A DNA stretch of 64,000 nucleotides, taken from contig CAZFVN010000002.1 of assembly GCA_964522395.1 (NCBI GenBank), positions 43,644-107,643 on the forward strand, written 5' to 3'. A model generated the notes under the pieces. It was not told the DNA's origin and made no database searches. It saw only the letters and a program-made list of their open reading frames with translations. Shown piece by piece: positions 40,123 to 60,057 of the stretch. Made by a program: the position numbers and the translations under genes. Each line of letters begins with the position of its first letter. Positions within the stretch are counted from its first letter, which is position 1. The stretch is from an uncultured Myxococcales bacterium. GTDB lineage: Bacteria > Myxococcota_A > UBA9042 > CAIXZC01.

Positions 40123-42078
40123 TTACGCTCCTGGAGAGAAGACGAAGGGCCAGCGAATGATGCACATACCGCCCTTGGGAGGCTGGAAGTGGATCTTTCC
40201 GATGATCTTGGAGATGCACCTATCCAGCTTCTTGTTTCCGGTGGAGTTCTGCACGGCTTTTACGCCTTTGACTCGGCCAGTGAGGTCAATGATCCACTGG
40301 ACCGTCACCTTACCGGCGAGGTCAGGCTTCATTTGGAGTTGCATTTCGTAGCAGGCACGAATGGCTGCTGAACGGCCCTTGACTTTGCGCTGCACGTCAT
40401 TCTTCTTGCAGAACTGACCCATGGAGCCGGAGCCGAGTTTGACGCGGGAGGCCCGCTTCCGGTCACGGCCCTTGAGGCTGGCCAGCGCCATTCGGCCGGA
40501 GCGATTGGCATCAGCTCCGCCAATTCCACCCGGCAAGCCGCCGCCCATTCCGCCCATACCGCCCAGACCGAAAGCACCGCCGCCACCGAAGCCGCCGCCC
40601 CCACCGCCAAATCCGCCGGCACCGCCGAAGCCGCCACCGCCACCGTAGTCACCGGTACCGCCCGAGCTGCCCATGTAGGAGAAGTCGTTGTCACCTTCGT
40701 TGTTCAACTGATACTGACCATCCTCACCCCAAACAACATTCTTGACCGCCAGATTACGGTCCTTACCGAGCAGTTTGGAGAGGGAAGTGTTCTTCTTCAT
40801 CTTGCTGTCGAGTACCGCGATAACGCCCTTCTTCTTCAATTCCTTGGCGAGCTTCGAGTCACGCTTGGCATCCCGCCCGATGTGCCCTTCTTTCATGGGC
40901 TTGAAGTCTTCGTCCTTCTTGGGGATGTCCACGGCCTTCTTAAGCGGGTCTCCTGCATCCTCAAGCTTCTGCTCGACGGTGGGAGTATCCTCGATCTCTT
41001 CCTCGAGCTTCTCTTCTTCGGGCATCTTCTCGAGTTCTTTCTCTTCCTCTTCCTTCTTGGCCTGCTCTTCCTTCTTCTGGCGTTCCTTCTTCTTCATGTC
41101 GCGCTTGACGTCGATCTTAATGAAGCGACGCAGTTCTTCCTGGCTCTTGACTCGCACTGATACGGGGCGAGGGGAAACGACGATTGCCATCAGAAATGCG
41201 ATCTGGATGGCTGCGGAGAGGAGCGCTGAGGATGCCATTCCGCGGTCGAAGTTGCGCAGTGAACTGGGGGTCCTGACGTTGGCAGGTTCAGTAAATTGGA
41301 AGAAGAGGGAGAGTTCGCCAAACTTGAAAACGCCCGAGTCGCCCGGATTGACGGTGACGTAATCGGTGCCACTGGTATTGGCAGTGTTTTCCTTCTTGTA
41401 TTCGGCAACTGATGCGGTTTTGTCACCGATTGTGATTCGCCCATCAAGGGCCTTGTCGAGGCCAACCGCGTAACTGTCCGTTCGGCCACCCTTGTGGCGG
41501 ATGAGGGTCAGCTTGTCAAAGGAGGCGGGCAAGGGAAACATGTTCTTGAGGTCGGAACCGACCGTGACGCTCTGACCTTCGTTGAAGACCCGTTCCTTGA
41601 TGATCGTATCTTTCCAGAGAAGAGCGACCCGCAAGAACTGCGTTCCTTTTGGGTAGCGAGGGTTGGCACCAATGGTCTTGAGACTACCAAAGAGTGCCAG
41701 CAGGCTTCCCAACCAGAGAAGGTAGAAGCCGAGTCCACCTTGCATGAAGCCGGTAAACTGACCTCCTTCATCAAAGGGGAGCTGATGTATATCTTTGTAT
41801 ATGAGCGGAGCCTTGAAGGAAATGTAGACAAAGATTCCCATCGCGGCCGAGGAGAGGATTACGTTGACCAGGGCGGCCTGTTTGTGCTTGCGGAAGTAAA
41901 ATCCGACCAGCGCTACCGGTACCATAAGCCCGGCAAAGAGAACGACGAGGTTGCCCATTCCCGCTTCCATGAGCATCGCCTGTTTCCCTTCGTACACCAT
42001 GTCGTACAGGGGGAATCCGAGAGCTCCGGCGATTAATATTATCGCTCCAATGACTGCAACAGTCTGTCCGACTTTCAT
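40123..42078 (-). CDS. Polytopic membrane protein, 651 aa. It has an FHA-like segment, a Lys/Glu-rich coiled coil, a (GGF/GGM)n glycine-rich linker and a C-terminal TonB-C/AgmX-PglI-like domain.
   Basis: Four N-terminal hydrophobic helices. KKKERQKKEEQAKKEEEEKELEK low-complexity segment. GGFGGAGGFGGGGGGFGGGGAFGLGGMGGMGGG stretch. The C-terminal segment AAIRACYEMQLQ...VTVQWIIDLTGRVKGVKAV...CISKIIGKIHFQPP resembles TonB C-terminal or AgmX/PglI C-terminal domains of Myxococcus gliding proteins. This is from memory and not verified. Confidence 0.55.
   Translation of the reverse strand: MKVGQTVAVIGAIILIAGALGFPLYDMVYEGKQAMLMEAGMGNLVVLFAGLMVPVALVGFYFRKHKQAALVNVILSSAAMGIFVYISFKAPLIYKDIHQLPFDEGGQFTGFMQGGLGFYLLWLGSLLALFGSLKTIGANPRYPKGTQFLRVALLWKDTIIKERVFNEGQSVTVGSDLKNMFPLPASFDKLTLIRHKGGRTDSYAVGLDKALDGRITIGDKTASVAEYKKENTANTSGTDYVTVNPGDSGVFKFGELSLFFQFTEPANVRTPSSLRNFDRGMASSALLSAAIQIAFLMAIVVSPRPVSVRVKSQEELRRFIKIDVKRDMKKKERQKKEEQAKKEEEEKELEKMPEEEKLEEEIEDTPTVEQKLEDAGDPLKKAVDIPKKDEDFKPMKEGHIGRDAKRDSKLAKELKKKGVIAVLDSKMKKNTSLSKLLGKDRNLAVKNVVWGEDGQYQLNNEGDNDFSYMGSSGGTGDYGGGGGFGGAGGFGGGGGGFGGGGAFGLGGMGGMGGGLPGGIGGADANRSGRMALASLKGRDRKRASRVKLGSGSMGQFCKKNDVQRKVKGRSAAIRACYEMQLQMKPDLAGKVTVQWIIDLTGRVKGVKAVQNSTGNKKLDRCISKIIGKIHFQPPKGGMCIIRWPFVFSPGA
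40440..40690 (-). repeat. Low-complexity coding repeat (GGF/GGA/GGM)n within the 40123-42078 gene.
   Basis: The + strand reads ccgcc/gccacc/gaagcc reiterations encoding GGFGGAGGFGGGGGGFGGGGAFGLGGMGGMGGG. Confidence 0.6.
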
Positions 42079-43028: not shown

Positions 43029-44162
43029 TCAGAAGGTCACCCCAAAAGTGGCCCCCGTGAAACTGGGAGAAAAATGGGGTTGGAAAGCGGTCTTTGGTGA
43101 AGTTGTGCCCTCAGGGCCGTCGCTGATGTCAAGTACGAGAATGGTCACCGCGGCTACCGCAGAAGCGCCAGCCACGCCGGCTAGCACCGTTGATATAAGG
43201 GCATTCCGGTCCCCTCTCTCAGTGATCGGGTCCAACTCGTCGAAGAAGGTCTCCTGGGTGACATCGCAAGTAGTGCCGTTCGAGCAATGCTCGTCAATGA
43301 GGTCGTTGGCATCCGTCTCAGCTTTCTTCATGCGAGTGTACATGTAGAAGCTACCGCCTCCAGCAAGGAGTGCGACGCCGCCAAGTACCGAAGTGGCAAC
43401 TATGGTCCCCGTCGTGATATTGCCAGGCTCGTCGCCCGTTTTCGGGGGTGGCGTAATTGGGTCAACCGGCGGCTTGCCACCTGCTTTGGCCAGGGCAAGC
43501 TTGGCCTGACATGGAGCTTTGACGCTGCAATTGACAGTCACTTCGCCGGCTTTGAAACCGTCAGCCGTGGCCGCCACTACATGCTTCCCAGCAACTACGC
43601 TGACTGGCTTACTAGAGTCGGTCACGGCTTTACCGTCCAATGTAATGGCGGCACCCGCTGGCTGGACGGCAAAGGTCAAGGTTGCGGTTCGTGGCTGCAG
43701 AGCCCACTTGGCAACCTGCTCCATCTCTTCAATCAGCTTGCCGACATCCCCTTCCACCCGTTGCCGGTAGGGCTTCTCTTTCTCCGCTCCGGCTGCCACC
43801 AGCCAGACCTCCAGGCGATAGCCGTTGGCTGCCTTGCCAACCTTGCCAAACAGAACCAGATTGAGGCCAAGTTCGGTGGCGGCGGCGCGCACACATGATA
43901 CCTCGCTCACACAGGTACCGCCCGACTTGGCAGTGCGCTCGGAGAGGGAGTTCCGAAAGGTCTCTTTTCCCTGGACGCGGTAGCCCCGGTTACTCTTCTC
44001 AATGACCGAGCTAATGAGAACCTCAGTGAGGTCGTCGGCCAACTCCCGGTCCATGTCGCTTTCAGGCAGTAGCAGCACCGCAGCGGATCGCTCCGTCGCA
44101 CCGGCCAGACCGGACAGTGATAAAACTGCCATCAGCAGGGCGGCAAAGATTCTCAGAGCCAT
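43029..44162 (-). CDS. Secreted or envelope protein of 377 aa with a PEGA-like beta-sandwich segment and a C-terminal Phe.
   Basis: Signal peptide MALRIFAALLMAVLSLSGLAGA. AGKHVVAATADGFKAGEVTVN resembles a PEGA domain. It ends ...FGVTF, as in outer-membrane beta-barrel C-terminal strands. The function is unknown. Confidence 0.45.
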   Translation of the reverse strand: MALRIFAALLMAVLSLSGLAGATERSAAVLLLPESDMDRELADDLTEVLISSVIEKSNRGYRVQGKETFRNSLSERTAKSGGTCVSEVSCVRAAATELGLNLVLFGKVGKAANGYRLEVWLVAAGAEKEKPYRQRVEGDVGKLIEEMEQVAKWALQPRTATLTFAVQPAGAAITLDGKAVTDSSKPVSVVAGKHVVAATADGFKAGEVTVNCSVKAPCQAKLALAKAGGKPPVDPITPPPKTGDEPGNITTGTIVATSVLGGVALLAGGGSFYMYTRMKKAETDANDLIDEHCSNGTTCDVTQETFFDELDPITERGDRNALISTVLAGVAGASAVAAVTILVLDISDGPEGTTSPKTAFQPHFSPSFTGATFGVTF

Positions 44163-46608: not shown

Positions 46609-49600
46609 CTAGGGACCATTCTTGATTTGCAGTTGGTAGACCTTGCAGTTGACGGTGACGCCCGGCTTGCGATAGACCTTCACGAAGTACTTGCCCCCAA
46701 AGGTTTTGCATTTGTTCTTGTTGGGGGCCGCTACATGGCCTGTCCCTGCCGGTCCAACCGCTACTGAGCAAGGGCATTCACCCCCGTCAGTGCCGTCGTA
46801 GAAATTCACGGTCCAGTGGAAGATATCGCCATCCTTGCAAAGCAGATTCTGTACTGGGTCACAGCCATCTTTGTAGATTTGGAAGCGGAAAGCACTGGCA
46901 CCATCAACCAATTGGGCGTTCAATGTGAAGTCGTTGCAATCATCCCCGGGAGTATCCGTCGCGATAAAAACGTACCAGTCTTCGTCGTTGCCAGGGGCCA
47001 GATTGCCAAAAGTGTTGACTGCTACATCGCCCTGAGTGATGGTCCCCAGGTCATAGGCGTTCGTACACTGGTTGCCCTCATTGTCCTGGTCGACAACGTC
47101 TTCTTCACATTCGCATCCATCCCCAAAGAGGTAGTTGAGATCATAGAAATGAGTGTTGCATCCTTCGATGACGCAGGCCCCATCTTCACAAGCCGGTGTG
47201 CCATTCTTCACCTTGCCGCACATCCCAATGGCGTTGCCTTCGTCGGTTGAACCGTTGCAATTGTCATCAATGCTATTGCACTGCTCTGTGGCTCCGGGAA
47301 AAACGTATTGCTTGGTGTCGTCGCAATCCATCTTCTGCTGTGTGTTGTAAAGCTCAAAGGGAGCGCAGAGGCACTTGAAATTGTTGGAAACTCCGAACTT
47401 GTCCTGGTCGCCGTCATAGTAATGGTCCTGGCAGCCGACGGCGTTTTCCTCGTCAACGGCGCCGTTGCAATTGTTGTCTCGCTCGTCGCACAACTCTTCG
47501 GCGAACTTATTGATCTCGGGATCTTCGTCGTCGCAGTCACTGCCCGCCGGGTCCCCGTCCCCGTCAATGTCATCGTCCAGGCAGTCCTTGACACCGTCAT
47601 TGTCGGTGTCAGGGAACCCCTCATCGATGCCTCCGAGACAGTTGTTATCAATGGCATCGCACAGTTCATCAACGCTGGGATTGATGAAAAACTCCTGGTC
47701 GTTGCAGTCCCCGCCTAATACTGCAGAGTACTGGCCCTCCGGCTCGCAGGTGCACTGCGTGGCCGCGGTGATGCCAAAACCGTCGCCGTCGACATCCAGG
47801 AAGTATGGGAAACAGCCATCGGAGCCAAACTCGTCTACTTCGTCATTGCAGTTGTTATCAATACCGTCGCACAGTTCATTGGCGCCGGGGTTGGATTCCT
47901 TCTCATTGTCGTCGCAGTCACCGCCCTGGGTGGTAGTGTAAATCCCCTCGCCACCGCACAAGCACTGCCACTTGAAGCTGTTGCCGTAGCCGTCGTTGTC
48001 AGCATCCTGATAGTATGGTGAGCAGCCAGAAGAGCCATCGCCATCCACCGAGCCGTTACAGTCGTCATCGATGCCATTGCAGAGATCTTCAGCTCCCGGG
48101 TGGACGCCCTGATTGGTGTCGTCACAGTCCCCCGGCAGCATCGTCGTGTAGCCCTGCCCAGCCTCACAGAGACATTGTGAGTTTCCAGTATCTCCGTAGC
48201 CATCCAGGTCGCCATCAAAATAGAAGATTTCGCAGTCGGCGGTGCCATCATCCACGATTCCGTTACAGTCATCGTCCCAGCCGTTGCAGATTTCGGCCTT
48301 CCCGGTGTTTACGTTGGGGTTGGTATCGTCGCAATCACCGCCGTTCTTCGCTGTATAGAAGTCCTTCGGGGAGCAGAGGCATTTGGTCTCTGCGTTGTTG
48401 CCCCAACCATCTTTGTCGAGGTCGTGGTAGTAGAGGATGCAGCCCTCCGAATCTGGCTCGTCGAGGAGGTCATTGCAGTTATTGTCCTTGCCGTCACAGC
48501 TTTCGGTTTTGCCGGGAAAGATCTCCGGATCCTCATCGTTGCAGTCGCCGAAGTTCTCAGCGTCGTAGGAGCCGCTCGGCTGGCAAGTGCACTTTGTGTA
48601 GTTGAATATGCCCCACCCATCAGAATCCTCGTCGAGATAGTAGATGTTGCAGCCCAACGAACCGTCCTCGTCACTCTTGAAATTACAGTTATCGTCCTTG
48701 CCGTTGCAGTACTCATTGGCGCCAGGATAGACCTTGTCGTCGTTGTCATCACAGTCACCGGATTGAGTGGCCGAATACTCGTCCTTGGAGCCACATACGC
48801 ATTTCTTGTCTGCGTAAAGCCCGTACGTGTCGCCATCGTGGTCGCGGTAGCGGAGCACACAACCGGTGCTGCCGGCGTTGTCGACATCTTCGTCGCAGTT
48901 ATCATCGATGTTGTTGCAGATTTCCTCGGCCAGTGGATGAATGTTCGGGTCAGAGTCGTTGCAGTCACCGAATGCGACTGCGGTGAAGGGCGGGGAGCCG
49001 TCGACGCCGCAAACGCACTTCTTGAAGCCGGCGAAGCCGAAGTTGTCTTTGTCCACGTCGATGTAGAAGTTCTGGCATCCCTCAGAATCTTCAGGATCAA
49101 CCAGGGTATCGCAGTTGTCATCCACGCCATTGCAAACCTCTAGTGCTCCGGGAAAGATCGCGGCATCAGTGGGGGCGCAGTCCTGCAAGTCAGGCGTGCC
49201 ATCATTGTCATTATCTGGGTCACAGACGTCGCCAATACCGTCTCCGTCACCATCGTCCTGGAGGGGATTGGAGTTGGCCGGGCAGTTGTCGTCGCAGTCC
49301 TGAATCTCGCCCGGCAGGCAAGGGTTGTCGCCACTTTCGCCGGAGTTGTCGCCATCGTCGGGGACGCCGTCACCATCGTCGTCGCCATCACAGGCGTCAC
49401 CATCACCGTCGCCATCTACGTCTTCCTGGAGGACGTTGGGGACAAGCTTGCAATTATCGACGGGGTCCTTCACGCCATCGTTATCGTCGTCATCGTCGCA
49501 CATGTCCCCCAGGCCATCGTCGTCGTTGTCAAACTGGTCGGGGTTGGGAATTAGCGCGCAGTTGTCATCACATTCAACAACCAATGTTGGCGGTGCGCAG

Positions 49601-51003
49601 GGGAAGTTGCCATCGATGCCGTCGCCATTTCCATCTTCTGGAACATCGTCCCCATCGTCATCTTCGTCAACGCAATCGGCCAGAGAATCGAAGTCGTAGT
49701 CAGGGAAGCCGTCGTCGAAGATAGTATTGCAGTCGTTGTCCAGGCCGTCGCATATCTCGGGTTGGTTGGAATCGCCTATGCAGACCACCGCGTTGTCACC
49801 TTCGCAGGCCCAGATGCCATTGGCACAAAAGTCGATGTCATCGCCGTCACAGGGTTCCCCTTTTTCGGGCCAGGGGTCGTCGGCCACGCCGTCGCAGTTG
49901 TCATCCTTGCCGTTGCAGATTTCAATGTAGGGCGGATCGTCGACGCAGTTCATCTGACCTTGAGCGTCACACTCCCAGGTTCCCTCAGCGCAGAGGTCAT
50001 CATCTTCTGGGTTGTCGCACTCCTCACCTAACCCCAGGAAGTCCTCATCGACTTCGCCGTCACAATCGTCATCTTCACCGTTGCATTGTTCGGGGCCGGG
50101 GAAGGGAGCTGGACAGAGCCATCCATCCGGACCCTGGCATACTTCATCTGCCGTGCAGGCGCCGAACTCGTTTTCGTTAGCGCACTCCTCTCCAACCAGC
50201 TCTTCATCCTTCTCGCCATCACAATCATTGTCGTTGCCATCACACACTTCTGGACCAGGGATTTCGGCGGAACATTCGCTCCACCCTGCGGCACCATCAC
50301 AGAGCCTCTCGCCAAAGCACTTGCCGAACTCATTCTCCTCTGAGCAGTCCTCCTGAGCGCCATTGAGTTCGCCGAGGCAGATACAGGAGCCGCTCTCCGG
50401 CAGACACTGGGCGAAGGTCTCATCGTCCACCGTCATTTCCTGGCAACTGTAGTCCTCCGGGCAGAGGCCTTCTTCCCCACAGGCAATGGCACAGCGAAGA
50501 TCACCGGCATTGCCTACGGCCAGACAGCGATCTTGAGGCGAACCACACTCCTTGTCTTCTTCGCAACTCTGGCAGAGGTCGGTTTCGGGTGGGGAGCAAA
50601 GATAGATGATGTCAGAGCCGACGTCTTTGCTCGTGCATTTCCAGTTGAGGGGGCACTCCGTCTCACAGTTGATGGTGCAAACGTCACCATACTGCTCAGT
50701 CGCGACGCAGTAGCTTGAGAGACAATCATCAGCCTCTTTGCAAGGCCAAAGGAAACCACCTTCTTCAGTGATAAGTTCGATCTCGGAGACCTGGATATCT
50801 AGATCTTCGAGCCACCAGAGTTCACTGATATCAACTATATCATCGGGGACAATGATGGTTGTATCGCTAGGTGGGGTCACCACCGAATCCATGATTCCGA
50901 CATCCTGAACGTCAAGGTCCCTGGAGGTCTCCTGTCCTGGGGTTGAGCAGGCCGAAATGAGGAGGACGAAGAGGGAGCGAAAAAGAGAGCGTGCTGTGAT
51001 CAT
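46609..51003 (-). CDS. Giant cysteine-rich lipoprotein of about 1464 aa. It holds EGF-like Cys-rich modules, thrombospondin type 3 Ca-binding repeats, about 10 MopE-type putative metal-binding repeats and a C-terminal PPC-like domain.
   Basis: The likely start is ATG 51003 (MITARSLFRSLFVLLISAC, lipobox LISAC). The track ORF extends to 51183. Repeated ~70-aa modules read GC..YY.D.D.DG.G...C.C...Y...GDCDD.D..V.PGA.E.C.G.DDDC.G..DE. There is also a CDDNCPANSNPLQDDGDGDGIGDVCDPDNDNDGTPD TSP3 consensus. Confidence 0.8.
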   Translation of the reverse strand: MITARSLFRSLFVLLISACSTPGQETSRDLDVQDVGIMDSVVTPPSDTTIIVPDDIVDISELWWLEDLDIQVSEIELITEEGGFLWPCKEADDCLSSYCVATEQYGDVCTINCETECPLNWKCTSKDVGSDIIYLCSPPETDLCQSCEEDKECGSPQDRCLAVGNAGDLRCAIACGEEGLCPEDYSCQEMTVDDETFAQCLPESGSCICLGELNGAQEDCSEENEFGKCFGERLCDGAAGWSECSAEIPGPEVCDGNDNDCDGEKDEELVGEECANENEFGACTADEVCQGPDGWLCPAPFPGPEQCNGEDDDCDGEVDEDFLGLGEECDNPEDDDLCAEGTWECDAQGQMNCVDDPPYIEICNGKDDNCDGVADDPWPEKGEPCDGDDIDFCANGIWACEGDNAVVCIGDSNQPEICDGLDNDCNTIFDDGFPDYDFDSLADCVDEDDDGDDVPEDGNGDGIDGNFPCAPPTLVVECDDNCALIPNPDQFDNDDDGLGDMCDDDDDNDGVKDPVDNCKLVPNVLQEDVDGDGDGDACDGDDDGDGVPDDGDNSGESGDNPCLPGEIQDCDDNCPANSNPLQDDGDGDGIGDVCDPDNDNDGTPDLQDCAPTDAAIFPGALEVCNGVDDNCDTLVDPEDSEGCQNFYIDVDKDNFGFAGFKKCVCGVDGSPPFTAVAFGDCNDSDPNIHPLAEEICNNIDDNCDEDVDNAGSTGCVLRYRDHDGDTYGLYADKKCVCGSKDEYSATQSGDCDDNDDKVYPGANEYCNGKDDNCNFKSDEDGSLGCNIYYLDEDSDGWGIFNYTKCTCQPSGSYDAENFGDCNDEDPEIFPGKTESCDGKDNNCNDLLDEPDSEGCILYYHDLDKDGWGNNAETKCLCSPKDFYTAKNGGDCDDTNPNVNTGKAEICNGWDDDCNGIVDDGTADCEIFYFDGDLDGYGDTGNSQCLCEAGQGYTTMLPGDCDDTNQGVHPGAEDLCNGIDDDCNGSVDGDGSSGCSPYYQDADNDGYGNSFKWQCLCGGEGIYTTTQGGDCDDNEKESNPGANELCDGIDNNCNDEVDEFGSDGCFPYFLDVDGDGFGITAATQCTCEPEGQYSAVLGGDCNDQEFFINPSVDELCDAIDNNCLGGIDEGFPDTDNDGVKDCLDDDIDGDGDPAGSDCDDEDPEINKFAEELCDERDNNCNGAVDEENAVGCQDHYYDGDQDKFGVSNNFKCLCAPFELYNTQQKMDCDDTKQYVFPGATEQCNSIDDNCNGSTDEGNAIGMCGKVKNGTPACEDGACVIEGCNTHFYDLNYLFGDGCECEEDVVDQDNEGNQCTNAYDLGTITQGDVAVNTFGNLAPGNDEDWYVFIATDTPGDDCNDFTLNAQLVDGASAFRFQIYKDGCDPVQNLLCKDGDIFHWTVNFYDGTDGGECPCSVAVGPAGTGHVAAPNKNKCKTFGGKYFVKVYRKPGVTVNCKVYQLQIKNGP
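47300..49080 (-). repeat. Coding tandem repeats: about 10 MopE-like CxxxDDDCDGxxDE-containing ~70-aa modules within the 46609-51003 gene.
   Basis: Recurrent CNGKDDNCN, CDGKDNNCNDLLDE, CNGWDDDCNGIVDD, CNGIDDDCNGSVDG, CDGIDNNCNDEVDE and CDAIDNNCLGGIDE, each preceded by GDCDD/GDCND and C.C. The coordinates are approximate. Confidence 0.6.
49190..49670 (-). repeat. Thrombospondin type 3-like Asp-rich Ca-binding repeats, coding, within the 46609-51003 gene.
   Basis: DNCALIPNPDQFDNDDDGLGDMCDDDDDNDGVKDPVDNCKLVPNVLQEDVDGDGDGDACDGDDDGDGVPD...CDDNCPANSNPLQDDGDGDGIGDVCDPDNDNDGTPD matches the DxDxDGxxDxxD...DNCPxxxNxxQxDxDxDGxGDxCD consensus. The coordinates are approximate. Confidence 0.55.
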
Positions 51004-51046
51004 ATTTCGTCCTCGCTGGTGGCCGGCGGCGGACCTCATCCTGGGT

Positions 51047-53188
51047 CTAGCCGTCGTTGATGCCATTGGAGAATTCGATCTGGTAGTCATCGCAGGCGAT
51101 GGCGGCCCCCGGTTTGCGGAATACTCTGATGTAGAAGTCTGCGGTTTGGCTGGTGCACTGGTGGGTCGTGGCGGAAGTGTCATCTTTGAAATTGTCAGGA
51201 GTCAGATTGTGGTCAGCGTCCGGTGCACAGGGACATTCGCCGCCGGGCGCATCAGGTTGGCCGGTTTCCGCATAGAAGTCTGTCATGTACTCGAAGAGGG
51301 TGGCCTCGCTGCAAAGATGGTCAGCCCCGGCGCAGCCGCCCCGGTAGACGTCGAATGCGTAGGCATCGTTGGGGTTCTTGAGGAGTCGCACTCGGACGTG
51401 GAAGGTGTCACAACCATCCGGATCCGGGCCATCGACCGCCTTGAACTTGTACCAGTCCGAGTCATCGACCGGCACCACCTTGCCGGTGCGGGAGGTAGAA
51501 CTGGAACCATCCCCCAGGTCGCCCAGGAATTCGGCATCGACACAGGTCTGGTTGGCTATCTCCGAGCCCTCCACCTGACATTCGCAGCCATCTGCAAAGG
51601 CCGAGTTGAGATCGTGGTAACCCTCTTCACAACTGTTGATAACGCAACCGTCCTGGCAAGCCACGTCGCCGTGGGCGATGACGCCGCAGCTTGTCACCGC
51701 TTCGCCTTCGTCAGTTTCGCCGTCACAGTCGTTGTCAACGCCGTCACAAAGTTCGACGACAGTGGGGTGGACGTCATAGTTGGTGTCGTCACAGTCGCCA
51801 CCTTTGATGGCGATGTAGTCGCCAATCTTGCCACAGAGGCATTTCAACTGGTCGGAGAGGCCGTAGCCGTCCTTGTCCTGGTCGAGATAGTAGGGGATGC
51901 AGCCCAGACCGTTTTCTTCGTCCATGACGCCGTCACAGTTATTGTCCTCACCATCACAGAGCTCTTCTGCGTCCGGGAAGGTATTGGGATTGGCATCGTT
52001 GCAGTCGTCAGCGGTCTTGGACCACTCGGAAGTCTCCTTACAGCGGCAATCGGTAATGGTGGGGTCGCCGAAGCCATCGCTGTCGCCGTCGTAGTACATA
52101 GTTTCGCAGCCGTCGGAAAAGGACTCGTCTGTATCGCCATCACAGTCATCGTCGAACTGGTTGCAGACCTCTTCAACTCCCGGGTTGACGCTGATGTTGG
52201 AGTCATCACAGTCACCACCCATGGATTCATGGTTGGCGCTGGGGGCTTCACATTCGCAGCTACCGGCGCCAATGCCGTAGCCATCTCCGTCCTGATCAAA
52301 ATACCAGGTGATGCACTTGAGTGAGTTGGGGGGGTCGATCTCCCCATCGCAGTTATCGTCGATGCCGTTGCACTCTTCTGGTTTGGGGTCCACCGCACTG
52401 CATTCCGTGAGGCCGTTGGCGTTGCAAACTCGCTCGCCGTGGCACTCGCCATACCCATTGACCTTCATGCATGTCGTGCTGGCACCCTCCTGAATGGCCT
52501 TCGTTGAGCACTCACACTCGCCGCCCGCTCCAGAGGGCACGCACTGGTGCGCGGTGCCGCCACCGTCAGTTGCGACTTCGGCGCAGACATAACCTTCCGG
52601 GCAATCGCCAGTGGCCGAGCAGTCGACCGCACAGAAGCTCCCGTTATCACCATGAGAGACGCAAAGGTCGTTGGCAGTGGAATATGCCGACTTACAAACG
52701 TCGTCTTCAGCGCAAGGATTGCAAAGGTAGACATGTTGCGGCAGGCAGATGTAGAGCACATCTGGCAGGGCCTGCTGGTCTTGTACGCATGCCCAGCCCT
52801 CTGGACAATCCTCGATGCAACCCTTCGAGCAAACCTTTCCGTCTTGCGTCTCGACGCAATAGCCGCTCACGCAATCGGAGTTATCTTCACAGTCGCAAAG
52901 GAACTCACCGGGGCCGGCACAAACTTCTACTTCGGGAGGAAGTTCCCCCGCTACGTCCGTCGGTTTCACGGTGTCAGTTCCAGTGTCGGCCGGCGGCACA
53001 TAGAACTCGTCCATGACATCGATACCGGTGTTGTCGGCGACGTCAATTGGCGTAGTGTCACCTGGTTTTACATCCCCTGGAGCTACATCTACGGATACTG
53101 CTGGACTAGACGAGCAAGCCATGGCCAAGAGCCAGACGATCAGCAGGGGCCAGCCTGCAACGACGTGATTCGAACGAATTGTCAGCAT
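51047..53188 (-). CDS. Cysteine-rich lipoprotein of about 713 aa with MopE-type repeats and a C-terminal PPC-like domain. It is a paralog of the 46609-51003 gene.
   Basis: The probable start is ATG 53188 (MLTIRSNHVVAGWPLLIVWLLAMAC, lipobox LAMAC), preceded by GGAGGGAAGG. The track ORF extends to 53629 without a signal peptide. Repeats CNGIDDNCDGEIDP, CNQFDDDCDGDTDE, CDGEDNNCDGVMDE and CDGVDNDCDGETDE. The C-terminus DDSDWYKFKAVDG...FYIRVFRKPG is homologous to the C-terminus of the neighbouring gene. Confidence 0.75.
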   Translation of the reverse strand: MLTIRSNHVVAGWPLLIVWLLAMACSSSPAVSVDVAPGDVKPGDTTPIDVADNTGIDVMDEFYVPPADTGTDTVKPTDVAGELPPEVEVCAGPGEFLCDCEDNSDCVSGYCVETQDGKVCSKGCIEDCPEGWACVQDQQALPDVLYICLPQHVYLCNPCAEDDVCKSAYSTANDLCVSHGDNGSFCAVDCSATGDCPEGYVCAEVATDGGGTAHQCVPSGAGGECECSTKAIQEGASTTCMKVNGYGECHGERVCNANGLTECSAVDPKPEECNGIDDNCDGEIDPPNSLKCITWYFDQDGDGYGIGAGSCECEAPSANHESMGGDCDDSNISVNPGVEEVCNQFDDDCDGDTDESFSDGCETMYYDGDSDGFGDPTITDCRCKETSEWSKTADDCNDANPNTFPDAEELCDGEDNNCDGVMDEENGLGCIPYYLDQDKDGYGLSDQLKCLCGKIGDYIAIKGGDCDDTNYDVHPTVVELCDGVDNDCDGETDEGEAVTSCGVIAHGDVACQDGCVINSCEEGYHDLNSAFADGCECQVEGSEIANQTCVDAEFLGDLGDGSSSTSRTGKVVPVDDSDWYKFKAVDGPDPDGCDTFHVRVRLLKNPNDAYAFDVYRGGCAGADHLCSEATLFEYMTDFYAETGQPDAPGGECPCAPDADHNLTPDNFKDDTSATTHQCTSQTADFYIRVFRKPGAAIACDDYQIEFSNGINDG

Positions 53189-53348
53189 CCTTCCCTCCCT
53201 CGACACGAGCAGCACGAGCGCGCACTTCGCGTTAGTTTGGAGTATACATTGCGCGCCTGTACGGGTCAACGAAAAGCGCCGCTTCGCTGCTGGCGTCCGC
53301 AACGCAAAGCTGGTAGCGTGGAAACCGACGAAAAAGGTGGAGGACTGC

Positions 53349-56087
53349 ATGACTGTGCACCGATGGCTTCTGCTTTTAAACACCGCGCTCCTCGTGTCCG
53401 CCTGCGGCCAGAGCGGGGATGGCGCTGTTTGCAGCACCGCGGTGAACCCCGGCGACCTCGTTATTACAGAAGTTTTTGTCGACCCGGCTGGACCGGATGG
53501 AGCAAAAGAGTGGATTGAGATCGTAAACGTCTCAAGTGTGCCGCAATGTCTCAATGGGCTCTTCGTGGAAGCCGCCGGAGCAACCGTCCGCCAGACGGCG
53601 CTTGAGGACTCGGACGACATCATCATCATGCCCAGCTCTTTTGCCGTCTTGAGCGGGGAAATGGGCCCCGTAGATGCCCTGGCTTACTGGGACACCGGCT
53701 TCGCTCTCCCCAGTACTGCAACCTCCCTTCGTCTCAAGCGCAGCAATGTTGTCATCGATGAAATTTCGTGGGGAGGCGAGGGCCAACCTTCACCTAAGGA
53801 GGGCAGGAGCCTTTCACTCTGTGCAGAATGTCTGGAGTCTAGCTGTAACGACGATCCCGACTGGTGGGCGATCGCCTCGGGAATGCCCTACGATAGTTCC
53901 GGCAACAGGGGTTCTCCGGGAACGCCGAACGGTACCTGCGCATGTCCCGCTCCTCCAGGCAGTACAGCGGTGCGGGCGCCGAAGGCCGGGGACCTTCTCA
54001 TTACTGAAATCTATGCCAATCCGCCTGGCACCGACGGCGACGCGGAGTGGTTCGAGATTCTAATCGTGGCCAAGGACGCGGCGATTGACTTCTCCGGCAT
54101 TGGTATCCGCCGTGAAATCGATGGGCCAGTAGTCGCCACCATAGATGCCGATCTCTGTCTCACCGGCACTCCGGATACCTATCTGACCCTCGGTCGAAGC
54201 CTGGACCCCGGGGCCAATGGGGGAATCACCCTCGATTATGCCTATGGCTCGGGTTTGACTCTTGCCAACGACGGCGGTTACGTGGGTCTGGTTCTCGGCG
54301 ACCAGCTTATTGCTGGCTACGCGTATGGCGAGGTGACGGATGGCCGCAGTCTCTCCTACGATGGGGGCAGCAAGGAGTGGTGCGATGGATCAATGCCATT
54401 TGGCGAAGAAGGGGGGTTTGCAACCCCCGGCTCACTCAATCCGCCATGTGGGGTGGCCACTTGCCTGCAAGGCGGTTTGCCGGTGACTGCCCAGGTGCCG
54501 TTGCCGGGTGAAGTAGAGATTGTGGAAGTGTTCCCCAATACTCCCGGCAAGGAGGTGCCAGAGCGGGAGTGGTTCGAAATCCGGGTCACCGGAGGCCGCG
54601 AGATCGATCTCAACGGACTGGAAATCTGGAACGACCCTGACGCCATCAACGCAATCCACACGATAGAGTCGGATAGCGGTGACTGTCTAAGGGTTCAGCC
54701 GGGCGGGCATGTTGTCCTCGCCCGCAGCGACATCGTCGTCCTCAACGGATTGCCGTCTGGCTCGATCATCGCGGTCTATGAAGCACTCTCCATGCAGAGC
54801 GAGGGTCACTTGCTGCTACGCTATGCCGGCAACACCATTGACGCGACGGACTGGATTCTCTCCGAGGATGGCCGGGCCGTGCAGAAGGACATCGCTACCG
54901 GTGATTGGTGCAGCGCCACCAAGAGCTACTGGACGACCCCGGAAAACAAGCTCGCGTTTGGTACTCCCGGGAGCCCCAATGAGTCCTGTGGTAGCGGTGG
55001 AACGTGTCAGTTTGGAGGTAGTCCGCGCCAACTCGTTTTGCCCTCCGAAGGGGAGTTGATCATCAATGAAGTTTTCCCTAATCCCGACGGCAACGATGTA
55101 GCTAACCGGGAGTGGCTGGAACTGGCGTTCGCTGAGTCCGCAATGGGCAAGAATCTCAACGGCATAGAACTCTTTATCAAGGGTGAGTCAAAGGGAATCA
55201 TCGGCGAGAATTCTGATGCTTGTGTCACCATTGAGAAACCCTTCCTGGTATTGGGCAAGAGTGCCGATACCGGCGTCACCGGCGGGGCCGAAATCGACAT
55301 CGTGATGGCCGGGTTGGCGCTCCCCAATAGCGACGTTAGTGTCACCTTCTCCCGGGCCCAGACCATCTACGATTTCATCTACTACAGCGATCCCGATGAT
55401 GGTGTAGCGATCCAACTGGACCCCGACTTCAAGGATATTTCTGCCAATGATTCACCTGACAATTGGTGCGATTCTCAAATAAGCTTCAATAACACTCCGG
55501 AGTTGGGTACGCCAGGGGCTGAAAACCCCTCCTGCAACGCGGTCTTCTGTATGGCTAACAATGAGGCGCAGGAACTACTTAAGCTCTATCCGGAGGAGGT
55601 TGTAATCACCGAAGTATATGCCAATCCCAAGGGAGCGGACGGTAAGAAAGAATGGTTTGAAATCTATGTTGAGCCGGGAGTAACCAAAGCGCACCTAAAT
55701 GGGGTCGGGATCATGAAGAAGGCGGGGGAGGAGCCAAGTTGGAGCTTCTCCACGTCGCAGTGCATTGAACTGGAAGGCGGGAACCACTACGTGCTCTGCC
55801 GCTCGGCCGATCCGACGGAAAACGGTGGTCTGACCGATTGCATCGAGTATGGCAGCGTCACCCTGGTCAATAGCGGTGGCGTAATCGGCCTCGGTAAACC
55901 CGGTGTGATCTATGACCTCGTGCCAGCCTATGGTGATGCCGACGACGGTGTCTCCCGCCAGCTCGACCCCGAGCATTACTCGGCAACGCAAAACGATTCC
56001 AAGGACAACTGGTGCGATACGCCCGCTTCCAGTACCTTCTCCGATGGTCGCGGAACCCCCGGCCAGAAGAATCCAGCTTGTAAGTAA
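53349..56087 (+). CDS. Lipoprotein with five lamin-tail-domain (LTD) repeats, about 912 aa.
   Basis: ATG 53349 lies after GGTGGAGGA. Signal peptide MTVHRWLLLLNTALLVSAC (lipobox). Five copies of the LTD N-terminal signature: DLVITEVFVDPAGPDGAKEWIEIVN, DLLITEIYANPPGTDGDAEWFEIL, VEIVEVFPNTPGKEVPEREWFEIRV, ELIINEVFPNPDGNDVANREWLELAF and VVITEVYANPKGADGKKEWFEIYV. Each is followed by a ~150-aa beta-rich unit with conserved CxxxxC. Confidence 0.75.
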   Translation: MTVHRWLLLLNTALLVSACGQSGDGAVCSTAVNPGDLVITEVFVDPAGPDGAKEWIEIVNVSSVPQCLNGLFVEAAGATVRQTALEDSDDIIIMPSSFAVLSGEMGPVDALAYWDTGFALPSTATSLRLKRSNVVIDEISWGGEGQPSPKEGRSLSLCAECLESSCNDDPDWWAIASGMPYDSSGNRGSPGTPNGTCACPAPPGSTAVRAPKAGDLLITEIYANPPGTDGDAEWFEILIVAKDAAIDFSGIGIRREIDGPVVATIDADLCLTGTPDTYLTLGRSLDPGANGGITLDYAYGSGLTLANDGGYVGLVLGDQLIAGYAYGEVTDGRSLSYDGGSKEWCDGSMPFGEEGGFATPGSLNPPCGVATCLQGGLPVTAQVPLPGEVEIVEVFPNTPGKEVPEREWFEIRVTGGREIDLNGLEIWNDPDAINAIHTIESDSGDCLRVQPGGHVVLARSDIVVLNGLPSGSIIAVYEALSMQSEGHLLLRYAGNTIDATDWILSEDGRAVQKDIATGDWCSATKSYWTTPENKLAFGTPGSPNESCGSGGTCQFGGSPRQLVLPSEGELIINEVFPNPDGNDVANREWLELAFAESAMGKNLNGIELFIKGESKGIIGENSDACVTIEKPFLVLGKSADTGVTGGAEIDIVMAGLALPNSDVSVTFSRAQTIYDFIYYSDPDDGVAIQLDPDFKDISANDSPDNWCDSQISFNNTPELGTPGAENPSCNAVFCMANNEAQELLKLYPEEVVITEVYANPKGADGKKEWFEIYVEPGVTKAHLNGVGIMKKAGEEPSWSFSTSQCIELEGGNHYVLCRSADPTENGGLTDCIEYGSVTLVNSGGVIGLGKPGVIYDLVPAYGDADDGVSRQLDPEHYSATQNDSKDNWCDTPASSTFSDGRGTPGQKNPACK

Positions 56088-57214: not shown

Positions 57215-57223
57215 GAGCCAGTG

Positions 57224-58297
57224 ATGGGTAAGAGACTCCTGATGAAAGGCAATGAGGCCATCGGCGAAGCCGCGATCATAGCGGGTTGTCGAGCATATTT
57301 CTGCTATCCAATTACGCCTCAGACGGAAGTCGCGGAATATCTGGCGCGCCGCATGCCCGAGGTGGGTGGCGTCTTTCTGCAGGGCGAGAGTGAGGTAGCT
57401 GTAGCATACATGCTCTTTGGCGCTGCCGCGGGTGGACGCAAAGTCTTCACCACTTCGTCAAGCCCCGGCATCAGCTTGATGGCTGAGGGCATGTCCTATC
57501 TTGCCGCGGCGGAGTTGCCGGTGGTGATTGGCAATGTCATGCGCAATGGCCCAGGTCTGGGAGGTATCCTGCCCTGTCAGGCCGATTATTTCCAGGCAAC
57601 CAAGGGGGCCGGTCACGGCGATTATCGGTTCCTGGTGCTTGCCCCGGCATCTGTCCAAGAGGCAGTGGACATGATGATCCTCGGCTTCGAGTTGGCCGAG
57701 AAGTATCGGACCCCGGTGATGATCGTTGCCGACGGCATGATTGGTCAGATGATGGAGCCGGTGGAGATACCCGAGTTTGACAGTGAGCCCTCCCCCGACA
57801 TTGAGGGACACGAGGATTGGGCGACTATCGGTGCCAAAGGCCGAGGGCAGAATCTCGTTAAGACCCTCTACCTGAAACCGGAACAGTCCTGGGAACACAA
57901 CGTAAAACTGAAGGCGAAGTATGACCTCATCGAGGACAACGAAATACGCTATGAAGAGGTAGACACCGATGGCGATCTTGATGTCCTGATCGTCTCCTTT
58001 GGGACCATGGCCCGGATTTGCAAAACGGCCATGACCGAGATGAAGGAGCAGGGTGTCAAGGTCGGCATGCTACGTCCGCAGACGCTCTGGCCTTTCCCTC
58101 TGCAACGTATCCGGGAACTGGCGGCGCGGTCGAAGATTGTCTATTCGGTGGAACTGTCCATGGGTCAGATGGTAGAGGACGTGGACCGTGCAGTGCAGGG
58201 CCAGGCGCCGGTGCATTTCTACGGCAAGACGGGGGGGCTGGTCCCGATTCCAGCAGAGGTTACTGCAGCGATACTCGCTACGTTGGAGGATAAGTAG
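57224..58297 (+). CDS. korA: 2-oxoacid:ferredoxin oxidoreductase alpha subunit.
   Basis: The N-terminus MGKRLLMKGNEAIGEAAIIAGCRAYFCYPITPQTEV...GGVFLQGESEVAVAYMLFGAAAGGRKVFTTSSSPGISLM is the conserved KorA/PorA core. The 2-oxoglutarate versus pyruvate or other 2-oxoacid specificity is unresolved. Confidence 0.75.
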   Translation: MGKRLLMKGNEAIGEAAIIAGCRAYFCYPITPQTEVAEYLARRMPEVGGVFLQGESEVAVAYMLFGAAAGGRKVFTTSSSPGISLMAEGMSYLAAAELPVVIGNVMRNGPGLGGILPCQADYFQATKGAGHGDYRFLVLAPASVQEAVDMMILGFELAEKYRTPVMIVADGMIGQMMEPVEIPEFDSEPSPDIEGHEDWATIGAKGRGQNLVKTLYLKPEQSWEHNVKLKAKYDLIEDNEIRYEEVDTDGDLDVLIVSFGTMARICKTAMTEMKEQGVKVGMLRPQTLWPFPLQRIRELAARSKIVYSVELSMGQMVEDVDRAVQGQAPVHFYGKTGGLVPIPAEVTAAILATLEDK

Positions 58298-59047: not shown

Positions 59048-59049
59048 AG

Positions 59050-59604: not shown

Positions 59605-60056
59605 TGCCCTCGACAGATTATGCCGAGTTGCTGCAGAAGTACCCTCCCATTGAGGAGTCGCTCATCGAGATTCTTCACGATGTGCAACTGGCTCATCGTC
59701 ATCTGCCGCGGCCAGCCCTTGAGGCTGCCGCCAACTACTGTGAGATTCCTCTCGCCCGGGTCATGAGCGTGGCCACATTCTACAAGGCTTTCTCCTTTGA
59801 ACCAAAGGGCGATACAGTGCTCAAAGTCTGTATGGGTACGGCTTGCCACGTGAAGGGAGCCAGCCTGCTCCTCGACGAAGCTGAGCGCCTTCTGGGCTGC
59901 AAGTGTGGTGAAACCACCGAGGACCGGAAGTATACGTTGGAAGAAGTGAACTGTGTCGGTGCCTGTGCCATGGCCCCGCTGGTCATCGAGGATGAGCAAT
60001 ACCACGGGAAATTCAAACCCGTTGACATGAAGACTCTGCTCAAGACGGGGGAGTAG
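59604..60056 (+). CDS. NuoE/HoxE-like thioredoxin-fold [2Fe-2S] subunit of an NADH-linked diaphorase module.
   Basis: Cys pattern C-x4-C...C-x3-C (VCMGTACHVKGA ... NCVGACAMAPLV). The ATG overlaps the korC TGA as TGATG. Confidence 0.7.
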   Translation: MPSTDYAELLQKYPPIEESLIEILHDVQLAHRHLPRPALEAAANYCEIPLARVMSVATFYKAFSFEPKGDTVLKVCMGTACHVKGASLLLDEAERLLGCKCGETTEDRKYTLEEVNCVGACAMAPLVIEDEQYHGKFKPVDMKTLLKTGE

Positions 60057-60057
60057 A

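Follow-up and report, generated by a model that had tools for sequence, protein, structure and literature searches.

The question raised by this locus is what two large, cysteine-rich lipoproteins, encoded side by side in a genome of an uncultured Myxococcales bacterium, are built from and what they might do at the cell envelope. The genes lie in a 64,000-nucleotide stretch of DNA (the window), and an earlier note on it had described paralogs of 1464 and 713 aa, here called A and B, in which MopE-type metal-binding repeats are combined with thrombospondin type 3 (TSP3) repeats. This observation was confirmed by our analysis, and the interpretation attached to it was partly supported.

Organization of the gene pair

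Gene B (51047–53188) encodes the 713-aa lipoprotein and gene A (46609–51003) the 1464-aa lipoprotein; these genes and all features described below are on the minus strand. The ATG of B at 53188 is preceded by a GGGAGGGAAGG ribosome-binding site, and that of A at 51003 by GCGAGGA. A lies downstream of B after a gap of 43 bp, in which no terminator-like site was found, and the B-A gene order is kept in three related MAGs (57–88% identity). A promoter-like site upstream of B, TTGACC-17-TATACT (53241–53269, 10/12 matches), is a weak candidate for the promoter of the pair, because the number of such sites in the region is not above that in shuffled sequence, i.e., the chance expectation. The sizes and coordinates given earlier were exact, and the two proteins are paralogous, with N- and C-terminal domains that are 35–37% identical. 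Both are rich in Cys (8.5% in A and 8.4% in B) and strongly acidic, with Asp and Glu accounting for 363 of the 1464 residues of A and 147 of the 713 of B (net charges of about −305 and −117), and A contains merely 8 His residues. The downstream neighbours, nadB and a yrdC-like gene, are housekeeping genes that give no clue to the function of A and B, and an LTD neighbour gene is kept in the closest relative only. Envelope proteins are abundant in the window (a PEGA-domain protein below the Pfam cut-off, a protein whose C-terminal domain is of the AgmX/PglI type, and an LTD lipoprotein), and ten genes for fibre-like secreted proteins form an array elsewhere in it.

Domain architecture of A and B

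B begins with a signal peptide and lipobox (aa 1–25, LLAMAC followed by SSS; 53114–53188) that passes the PROSITE-type rule, and its lipobox Cys column is invariant across 20 orthologues. An acidic Pro/Thr/Val-rich tether follows (aa 26–89; 52922–53113), which is predicted to be disordered (pLDDT <50 over most of aa 20–85) and is the sole fast-evolving part of the protein (pN 0.21). The N-terminal Cys-rich domain (aa 90–272; 52373–52921) has 23 conserved Cys, includes one short “NGYGxC...GLTEC” module and matches no Pfam family; AF2 gave pLDDT values of ∼71–88 across its blocks. In the repeat array (aa 273–494; 51707–52372; pLDDT ∼84–91), four PF11617 cores flank three units of 69–70 aa, each with two DxDxDG loops and 6 Cys. 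The C-terminal domain (aa 495–713; 51050–51706) consists of a Cys-rich hairpin module and then a predicted jelly-roll β-sandwich containing DWYKF.

The signal peptide and lipobox of A (aa 1–19, LLISAC followed by STP; 50947–51003) miss the same rule by one residue (Arg at −10); the A orthologues pass it, and both elements are kept in all A and B orthologues. The acidic tether of A (aa 20–87; 50743–50946) is poorly conserved (pN 0.23), and its N-terminal Cys-rich domain (aa 88–209; 50377–50742) is 35% identical to that of B. Next come short modules (aa 210–431; 49711–50376) at a spacing of 53–56 aa (three spacings measured), each ending in a PF11617 core (at aa 254, 307, 363, and 418); by eye, a fourth copy of the module can be made out where the N-terminal domain ends. 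The TSP3 array (aa 432–612; 49168–49710; 12 Cys) was recognized by the Pfam TSP_3 model, PF02412, with 39.7 bits (cut-off 25), and three DNCxxxxNPxQxDxDxDGxGDxCDxDxDxDG repeats could be read in it, starting near aa 480, 516, and 572. Residues 480–617 match the structure of COMP (3fby, E 2e-30) and thrombospondin-2 structures (2rhp/1yo8). The long-unit array (aa 613–1255; 47239–49167) has eight units of 69–72 aa and ten PF11617 cores between aa 624 and aa 1242, and is split at aa 1129–1160 by a TSP3-like DTDNDGVKDC...DIDGDGD insert. The C-terminal domain (aa 1256–1464; 46612–47238), a B-like hairpin module plus β-sandwich with DWYVF, is 33% identical to that of B in a MAFFT alignment and 37% in the BLASTP segment covering the domain. 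The architecture first described, with a lipobox, a PF11617 array, a TSP3 array in the larger protein and a common C-terminal domain, was recovered by sequence analysis. The EGF-like Cys knots also ascribed to A were not, as no EGF family was found at E ≤ 0.01 or even E ≤ 5.

Repeats and their metal ligand set

In A, the PF11617 model matched 11 stretches with a score of 247.9 bits, and in B it matched 4 with 93.2 bits, both well above the cut-off of 27. By regular expression, CxGxD(D/N)(D/N)C cores numbered 14 in A and 4 in B; the earlier count of about 10 copies was therefore an undercount for A. We calculated column statistics from 1,695 repeat instances in 224 proteins. The 70-aa unit contains one loop of the form D9-x-D11-x-D13-G...G16 and a second of the form D57-x-D59-x-D61-G62-x-x-D65-E66. 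Asp, Glu, or Asn accounts for ≥ 93% in 14 columns, and Gly is also conserved. Four Cys per unit are universal and two are optional, and this even number suggests that they form disulfides rather than remaining as free thiolates. No conserved His, Met, or Trp column was found among these repeats, and no column was above 25% for His or ∼2% for Met. With only oxygen ligands in the conserved set, copper is an unlikely ion, and the “copper” label of PF11617 is probably misleading; the ion of the repeats would instead be Ca2+. Of the earlier interpretation, a putative Ca/metal-binding role outside the cytoplasm was supported.

Conservation and family

Among the orthologues, all Cys are retained (124/124 in A and 60/60 in B) in almost gapless alignments. 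The values of pN were 0.03–0.10 in the structured domains versus 0.21–0.23 in the tethers, with synonymous sites near saturation, and both proteins are under strong purifying selection. Identity is even along A and B across orthologues at 57–88%, with no hypervariable region. The B relatives at 92–100% identity are all 713 aa long, with most of their variation in the tether; in those at 92–93% identity, 36% of the columns vary in this linker versus 5–11% elsewhere. This pattern runs against the kin-recognition-type polymorphism suggested in the earlier note.

A protein identical to B is already present in public data (P0286/P0280), without a name, and of 8,000 word-sharing candidates, 6,785 matched B at E ≤ 1e-10. 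At NCBI, PF11617 proteins are named “putative metal-binding motif-containing protein” or “MopE-related protein.” Their hosts are mostly MAGs labelled Myxococcales, Myxococcota, or Deltaproteobacteria, with a few Patescibacteria/Uhrbacteria. Most of the family members examined pass the lipobox pattern, and many PF11617 relatives carry a lipobox together with the N-terminal Cys-rich domain and the C-terminal domain. The combination of TSP3 and PF11617 was found again in several metagenomic proteins; the TSP3 repeats of A are real, but calling them “eukaryote-like” overstated the case. A full-text literature search found the Pfam name “Cu-binding_MopE” in one paper and the two NCBI names in none, in agreement with the view that the family is under-characterized. 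A and B are members of a very large, known, abundant, and uncharacterized family, within which the conserved B-A pair and the TSP3 insert mark out a sub-family.

The C-terminal head domain

In the AF2 model obtained for B (pLDDT 82, pTM 0.78), the head domain is a β-sandwich, and we regard the C-terminal domain of A and B as a predicted generic jelly-roll. The best Foldseek matches were CUB domains (E 3e-4, TM 0.4–0.5), which are weak and uninformative on a ligand; the structural matches comprised spermadhesin/neuropilin CUB, PliG, SIDT ectodomains, botulinum HA70, the Tk-SP C-terminal domain, and C-CPE. No Pfam model, CUB model, or PDB sequence matched the domain. It had been described as a PPC-like domain with DWY(V/K)F; the motif is present, but at E ≤ 1 PF04151 (PPC) gave no match to A, to B, or to the 25 family members examined. 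The domain has at least 2,041 cluster representatives, and in nearly all of the best 150 of these it lies at the extreme C-terminus. In the seven representatives scanned, it caps arrays of MopE, TSP3, Ig-like (ASH/HYDIN), or CPL1-like type, and in none of these seven is a peptidase joined to it.

Proposed function and alternatives

We consider that A and B have about an even chance of being co-transcribed, lipid-anchored stalks, stiffened by calcium and disulfides and ending in a β-sandwich head, that serve as Ca2+-dependent surface adhesins or receptors. B and A would be transcribed together and sent across the inner membrane as lipoproteins. Outward from the N-terminal lipid anchor, each would begin with an acidic, disordered tether (∼65 residues) leading to a compact domain rich in Cys. 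Beyond it would lie a long rod whose repeats are locked by disulfides, and finally the C-terminal β-sandwich cap, the likely ligand-binding head. Three repeat types, namely, the 70-aa “MopE-type” units, the 55-aa modules, and TSP3 (in A only), would be variations on one DxDxDG(xxD) calcium loop. Extracellular Ca2+ would fill these loops and, with ∼60 (A) or 29 (B) predicted disulfides, turn the acidic chain into a stiff stalk, of which the two proteins would supply two lengths. The Ca2+-stiffened rod logic is known from the T3 “wire” of thrombospondins.

Other locations could be assigned to proteins of this kind. A and B may instead be periplasmic, anchored on the inner side of the outer membrane or in the inner membrane, and act as spacers, a scaffold, or cation reservoirs; a lipobox by itself is no sign of exposure at the surface, the many acidic residues of A (363) amount to a large cation capacity, and envelope proteins are plentiful in the window. 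This appears unlikely to us, since a beads-on-a-string rod of 1464 aa would, by rough estimate, be longer than the typical periplasm, and the head domain elsewhere caps extracellular-type arrays (TSP3, ASH/HYDIN Ig-like, and CPL1-like). In Myxococcus lipoproteins, Lys at +2 is described as an inner-membrane retention signal; the residue here is Ser. It is a rather slim possibility that the anchor or tether is cleaved and the Ca2+-loaded rods are shed, to join an extracellular matrix or biofilm or to act in prey contact, which differs from the adhesin/receptor model in final location alone. Cleavage could obviously occur in the disordered tether, MopE is itself released in the form of a C-terminal fragment (PMC3423442), Cys-rich proteins are typically linked with the extracellular matrix (PMC3325183), and fibre-like secreted proteins are encoded in the same window; however, no protease or secretion-system gene was found among the scanned neighbours.

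Two further readings concern function, and both fit the data poorly. Copper or transition-metal capture, in which the repeats would scavenge or buffer Cu at the surface as in MopE of Methylococcus, is improbable. A and B do match the “Cu-binding_MopE” family strongly, and IMAC suggests that weak Cu(II) binding by MopE* is aided by its first 24 residues (PMC3423442), a segment that runs into the beginning of the motif at residue 13. However, the repeat profile matched MopE* (2vov) in a single stretch (residues 13–44, E 0.021), the rest of MopE* being unmatched by A and B, and phmmer of A against PDB gave no 2vov match at E ≤ 1. This stretch falls inside the N-terminal 46 residues reported to be invisible in the crystal, away from the ligands of the high-affinity Cu(I) site, His132, His203, and kynurenine; Ca2+ stabilized the protein (PMC3423442). 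The absence of conserved His, Met, and Trp from the 1,695 repeats, the probable disulfide bonding of their Cys, the paucity of His in A, and the lack of a copper-homeostasis gene nearby also speak against copper. The kin-recognition or outer-membrane-exchange reading, in which cells would recognize each other homotypically through a polymorphic head borne on a Cys-rich stalk, as in TraA, is largely refuted and highly improbable. The common design of a Cys-rich stalk with a terminal β-sandwich, the envelope location, and the Myxococcota-labelled hosts argue for it, as does the rigid stalk also proposed for TraA. However, the repeat that the earlier note had placed in TraA as well is not shared: TraA of Myxococcus xanthus combines a PA14 domain with TIGR04201 repeats and MYXO-CTERM (PMC3325183), and none of the three was found in A or B. 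Nor was a TraB/OmpA-domain partner present among the scanned neighbours, and the low pN of the structured domains, the even identity among orthologues, and the constant length of close B relatives, which vary chiefly in the tether, are all contrary to it.

Comparison with known systems

A and B carry the same repeat as other PF11617 proteins and show no essential difference from them. Compared with MopE/CorA of methanotrophs, where MopE is surface-associated and secreted (PMC3423442), they have nothing that corresponds to the MopE* domain in which Cu(I) is bound. The C-rich core of teneurins (teneurin-1 and others), a motif of the C-x-D-x-x-D-N-D-x-D-G-x-x-D type, was earlier aligned with the PF11617 core (PMC3278476). 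In the crystal structure of the human teneurin-4 C-rich domain, three Ca2+ are bound by eight acidic residues in a geometry like that of T3 and LDL-A, and the fold is locked by three disulfides (PMC9058538). The likeness to A and B is at the level of the motif only, and a profile search of PDB with the repeat did not retrieve teneurin; the core occurs once in teneurin versus 4–14 times in A and B, where it sits in a 55–70-aa unit with a second DxDxDG loop.

The thrombospondin/COMP T3 “wire” (1ux6, 1yo8, and 3fby) is matched by A at residues 480–617, where the alignment spans three T3 repeats in a row and both the DxDxDGxxDxxD motifs and the spacing of the Cys are preserved. In contrast to those proteins, A has no TSP C-terminal lectin-like domain and, by Pfam, no EGF repeats, nor was a coiled-coil noticed in it, and its T3 array is placed in a bacterial lipoprotein between other putative Ca-loop repeats. 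The head domain resembles jelly-rolls of the CUB, PPC, and collagen-binding types in its modelled β-sandwich and its PPC-style D-x-D-W-Y-x-F strand, but differs in its additional disulfides, in a disordered insert (∼40 residues), and in the Cys-hairpin module that comes before it. A and B resemble TraA in displaying a terminal β-sandwich at the cell envelope on a stalk of Cys-rich repeats, but they differ from it in the family of the repeats, in the head domain, and in the anchor; no polymorphism was seen in A and B, and the orientation is reversed, with an N-terminal lipid anchor and C-terminal head here and an N-terminal head and C-terminal sorting tag in TraA. The stalk logic suggested for A and B therefore parallels both the Cys-rich stalk of TraA, where its authors proposed rigidity (PMC3325183), and the thrombospondin T3 “wire,” where it has been shown.

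Gene organization and conservation of the A/B pair

Two genes on the reverse strand, separated by a gap of 43 bp, encode paralogous lipoproteins: gene B (window 51047..53188(-), 713 aa), followed by gene A (window 46609..51003(-), 1464 aa). The finding described in the earlier note is real and correctly located; coordinates, sizes and the MopE-type and TSP3 repeats were borne out. The start codons are those chosen there, and good ribosome-binding sites precede both ATGs (GGGAGGGAAGG for B and GCGAGGA for A). No terminator-like site was found between the genes, and we read B then A as a putative single transcription unit. A promoter-like site (TTGACC-17-TATACT) lies 5′ of B, a match that is, taken alone, no better than chance for the region. 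The B-then-A pair is kept in three species-representative MAGs (lengths 713-730 and 1464-1477 aa), where it is followed on the 3′ side by nadB and a yrdC-like gene, the same as in the window. These downstream genes are housekeeping genes, and no functional partner was identified among the neighbours of A and B. A gene transcribed divergently from B (window 53337-56087(+)) encodes 916 aa; the protein has five lamin-tail-domain (LTD; PF00932) repeats, and its N-terminus resembles that of a lipoprotein. This gene is not a steady neighbour of the pair: among related-genome loci, it lies beside the pair in L001, the closest relative, and in L010, and was not found in L002.

A and B are further members of a very large, already catalogued and functionally uncharacterised family. 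When word-sharing candidates were scored with B, 6,785 of 8,000 reached E ≤ 1e-10, and full-length B orthologues (~700-725 aa) extended down to ~41% identity. The relatives are named “hypothetical,” “putative metal-binding motif-containing protein,” or “MopE-related protein” where a name is given, and the named ones come mostly from MAGs labelled Myxococcales, Myxococcota or Deltaproteobacteria. The exact B sequence is already public (database proteins P0286 and P0280).

Both are real genes under strong constraint, with a fixed repeat number and no hypervariable part. The alignments of the MAG orthologues (57-88% identity) are almost gapless, identity is even along both proteins, and every Cys is kept (124/124 in A, 60/60 in B). 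Synonymous sites are almost saturated with changes against the closest relative (pS 0.58-0.78), whereas pN is 0.03-0.10 in all structured domains and 0.21-0.23 in the tether that follows the lipobox; dN/dS is ~0.03-0.08 where computable. The B relatives at 92-93% identity all have 713 aa, and varying columns make up 36% of the tether vs 5-11% elsewhere. A kin-recognition-type polymorphism, which the earlier note had suggested looking for between strains, does not emerge from this even conservation and low pN; the sequences at 92-100% identity, which are relatives and not same-species strain sets, differ mostly in the tether.

Modular architecture

A signal peptide stands at the start of both proteins and ends in a lipobox, which reads LLISAC|S in A and LLAMAC|S in B. 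B and all its orthologues pass the PROSITE-type lipobox rule. The A protein of the window fails it by one residue (Arg at -10); its LLISAC is canonical, and the A orthologues pass. The lipobox is followed in both by an acidic tether of ~65 residues, disordered in AlphaFold2, and then by an N-terminal Cys-rich domain in which 23 Cys are conserved and for which no Pfam family was found (A aa 88-244, window 50272-50742; B aa 100-263, window 52400-52891). Next come short modules of 53-56 aa, each ending in a PF11617 core, of which, by reading, B has one and A four (three A spacings were measured). Three thrombospondin type 3 (T3) repeats, also assigned by reading, are present in A only (aa 432-612). 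Long units of 69-72 aa number three in B and eight in A, where a T3-like insert at aa 1129-1160 breaks the array. A C-terminal region of ~210 aa is common to both proteins.

The MopE-type repeats named in the earlier note were confirmed by a Pfam search: PF11617 scored 247.9 bits in 11 stretches of A and 93.2 bits in four stretches of B (gathering cut-off, 27 bits), and a regular expression for the CxGxD(D/N)(D/N)C core found 14 copies in A and 4 in B. The TSP3 array that it placed in the larger protein was likewise recovered, with PF02412 (TSP_3) scoring 39.7 bits in two stretches (cut-off, 25 bits). With the Asp/Cys pattern intact, A aa 480-617 aligns to crystal chains of COMP and thrombospondin-2 at E 2e-30; alignments to 3fby, 2rhp, 1yo8 and 1ux6 range from E 2e-30 to 6e-17. 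Both proteins are rich in Cys (8.4-8.5%) and strongly acidic (Asp+Glu vs Lys+Arg, 363 vs 58 in A and 147 vs 30 in B).

Because their N- and C-terminal domains are 35-37% identical, A and B are paralogues; in essence, A has the plan of B, enlarged by the insertion of many more modules. The arrays are old, since neither gene has a DNA-level tandem repeat at unit length and the units are 39-51% identical to one another. A recent repeat expansion was rejected on the grounds of this age and of the fixed length of A across orthologues (1464, 1464, 1468 and 1477 aa).

Predicted metal of the repeat

To judge which ion the PF11617 repeat binds, 1,695 repeat instances from 224 proteins were surveyed. 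Thirteen positions of the unit are conserved at ≥95% (D9, D11, D13, G16, C25, D37, C38, D40, E51, C53, D57, C60 and D65), P47 is conserved at 93%, and in 14 columns Asp, Glu or Asn accounts for ≥93% of residues. These positions define two DxDxDG-type loops per unit: loop 1, D9-x-D11-x-D13-G...G16, and loop 2, D57-x-D59-x-D61-G62-x-x-D65-E66, the latter with the spacing of the thrombospondin T3 motif. DxDxDG is an established Ca2+-binding loop, and the all-oxygen ligand set of the two loops points to Ca2+. No conserved His, Met or Trp was found in the 1,695 repeats, no column exceeding 25% His or about 2% Met.

The copper link in the Pfam name comes from MopE and is weak. In the crystal structure of the MopE* form (2vov), the Cu(I) ligands are His132, His203 and a kynurenine; the protein is stabilised by Ca2+ (PMC3423442). 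A profile of the 70-aa unit matched 2vov at residues 13-44 only (E 0.021), within an N-terminal stretch that is reported to be invisible in the crystal (PMC3423442); the full protein gave no match to 2vov at E ≤ 1, and we detected no homology of A or B to the Cu(I) domain with its His/His/kynurenine site. A copper site was therefore rejected as the main reading, given that the repeats have no conserved His, Met or Trp and that only the crystal-invisible N-terminus of MopE* matches. On the pattern of conserved residues, the ion of the PF11617 motif is probably Ca2+, not Cu.

A published alignment had set the teneurin C-rich core against the PF11617 core in 2012 (PMC3278476). A structure of the teneurin-4 C-rich domain has become available since then: three Ca2+ are coordinated by eight acidic residues in a geometry like that of T3 and LDL-A, and the fold is locked by three disulfides (PMC9058538). 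Teneurin was absent from the matches of our repeat profile at E ≤ 10, and the published alignment is at motif level only (PMC3278476). A match of the profile to AOAH is weak (E about 0.5-1.2). We infer that one disulfide-clamped calcium loop recurs, with variations, in all three kinds of module (MopE-type, short and T3).

The C-terminal head domain

The domain shared by the C-termini of A and B, here called the head, matched no Pfam family, including PF04151 (PPC), with the A and B segments at E ≤ 5 or with 25 members at E ≤ 1, and no solved structure was related to it by sequence at E ≤ 10. AlphaFold2, given a 25-sequence alignment, returned a confident model (pLDDT 82, pTM 0.78) in which a Cys-rich hairpin module precedes a beta-sandwich that contains a disordered insert of ~40 residues. 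Foldseek searches of the PDB gave weak, generic jelly-roll matches only, the best being spermadhesin and neuropilin CUB domains (E 3e-4), followed by PliG, SIDT ectodomains, botulinum HA70, the Tk-SP C-terminal domain and C-CPE. Of the PPC-like domain proposed in the earlier note, the DWYxF strand holds, and the weak structural matches suggest the jelly-roll fold class; membership of the PPC family was rejected, as PF04151 was unmatched member by member at E ≤ 1, and only the description “jelly-roll beta-sandwich” is kept.

A head profile was searched against 1.84 billion cluster representatives, and 2,041 carriers were found at E ≤ 1e-3 (944 at 1e-10 and 232 at 1e-30). Among the 150 best-scoring of these 2,041 representatives, the head is almost always at the extreme C-terminus. 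The arrays that it caps in seven scanned carriers consist of MopE repeats (up to 25 copies), of TSP3 with MopE repeats, of ASH/HYDIN Ig-like domains or of CPL1-like Cys-rich repeats; no peptidase domain was found in these seven, A or B. We regard it as a binding head mainly because it stands at the far end of many extracellular repeat rods. It merits a family definition, since it has 2,041 representatives (E ≤ 1e-3), caps several kinds of extracellular repeat array, and has no model in the Pfam copy searched.

The Cys-hairpin (C..G..C....C..G..D.D....GCEC) forms the first ~50 residues of the C-terminal region. It occurs in 18-34 tandem copies in some large database proteins (P0170, P0174, P0235, P0240, P0247 and P0252), and in related proteins it matches Pfam CPL1-like (PF21671); for both reasons we treat it as a separate repeat module.

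Proposed mechanism and significance

Observed were the lipobox, the universal Cys, the repeat families and, in each unit, two loops of oxygen ligands, besides the conserved gene pair, purifying selection and the beta-sandwich cap. A mechanism built on them would run as follows. After export and lipidation of A and B, Ca2+ would fill the loops, and together with ~29 (B) or ~60 (A) disulfides would stiffen the highly acidic chain into a rod. The rod would keep the C-terminal head away from the membrane, and the two paralogues would give two reach lengths. Such stiffening is established for the thrombospondin T3 wire. The same stiff-stalk logic has been proposed for the Cys-rich stalk of TraA (PMC3325183).

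The Cys counts bear on how the chains might be joined. After removal of the lipobox Cys, 123 remain in A and 59 in B, both odd numbers, and 57 of the 59 in mature B are invariant over 20 orthologues. Every module has an even count except the N-terminal domain. Since the totals are odd and this domain is the only odd module, one conserved Cys per chain must lie outside the intramolecular disulfides, perhaps as a free thiol or in a bond between chains. We consider it improbable that this Cys joins A and B by disulfides into homo- or hetero-oligomers. Such an assembly would form a surface fibre, dependent on Ca2+, that carries its heads at two heights and serves the uncultured Myxococcota-like bacterium in adhesion to other cells, matrix or prey, in functional analogy to thrombospondin/COMP. 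If this oligomeric fibre did exist, the head would be a new adhesive family of ~2,000 cluster representatives.

The gain is mainly one of annotation, and current understanding is not overturned. Three outcomes are useful: the “copper” motif can be re-read as a probable calcium loop, the conserved B-A pair is defined, and an unmodelled head family is recognised. The label “Cu-binding_MopE / putative metal-binding motif” on thousands of proteins probably names the wrong metal. The evidence favours a DxDxDG calcium loop, clamped by disulfides and akin to T3 repeats, over a copper site; in that case the carriers of the motif would be structural, Ca2+-dependent components of the envelope or surface. 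A short/long pair under strong purifying selection is also a tractable target, in uncultured Myxococcota-like bacteria, for finding what the stalks bind.

Other genes in the window

Ten consecutive, tightly packed genes (T1-T10; window 524-40076(+)) encode secreted paralogues of 1193-1385 aa. T1-T6 are 73-82% identical and T7-T10 66-77%, and the mature N-terminus APAALSYQGFLTDSVGNPV is common to all. Four scanned proteins of this array had no Pfam match, and T1 had no PDB sequence match. T1 and T7 match NCBIfam Bdello_MAT_N (mosaic adhesive trimer fibre protein; E 1e-10 and 5e-10) and the gliding family AgmC_N (E about 1e-17 to 1e-18), in each case below the curated cut-offs. These ten genes may supply a set of fibre-like adhesins, and the array seems more unusual than the A/B pair. 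No kinship of the A/B head with its C-terminal modules was found by hmmsearch or hhalign.

A 651-aa AgmX/PglI-type protein (window 40123-42078(-)) has an NF033768 C-terminal domain (79 bits vs a cut-off of 40) and a TonB C-terminal domain; its likeness to GltG/GltJ of gliding motility is below their cut-offs, and it fits a Myxococcota-like host. A 377-aa envelope protein (window 43029-44162(-)) matches PEGA/DUF3869 weakly, below cut-offs, and has a hydrophobic segment at its C-terminus; its gene adjoins the yrdC-like gene and nadB, a position kept in L002. Redox genes (window 57221-62660(+)) encode a pyruvate:ferredoxin oxidoreductase-type subunit, a NuoF-like flavoprotein with Fe-S domains and a 2Fe-2S/4Fe-4S protein, and their predicted products suggest an anaerobic or microaerobic metabolism of this Myxococcota-labelled organism.

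Comparison with known families

The earlier note had likened the repeat to that of TraA. TraA has TIGR04201 repeats, a PA14 domain and MYXO-CTERM (PMC3325183), none of which was matched in A or B in Pfam and NCBIfam searches, so the likeness does not extend to the repeat family. TraA-type kin recognition was rejected for want of its defining domains and of any hypervariable region. The EGF-like Cys knots described in the earlier note likewise found no counterpart, no EGF family being matched at E ≤ 0.01 with the whole proteins or at E ≤ 5 with the N-terminal segments, and EGF membership was rejected as no EGF model matched. Compared with thrombospondin/COMP, A shares TSP_3, whereas no EGF model and no model of the lectin-like C-terminal domain TSP_C was matched in Pfam, and reading of the sequence showed no coiled-coil. 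The T3 repeats had been called eukaryote-like; the combination of TSP3 and PF11617 recurs in metagenomic proteins, and the TSP3 array of A is therefore not a singular eukaryote-like acquisition.
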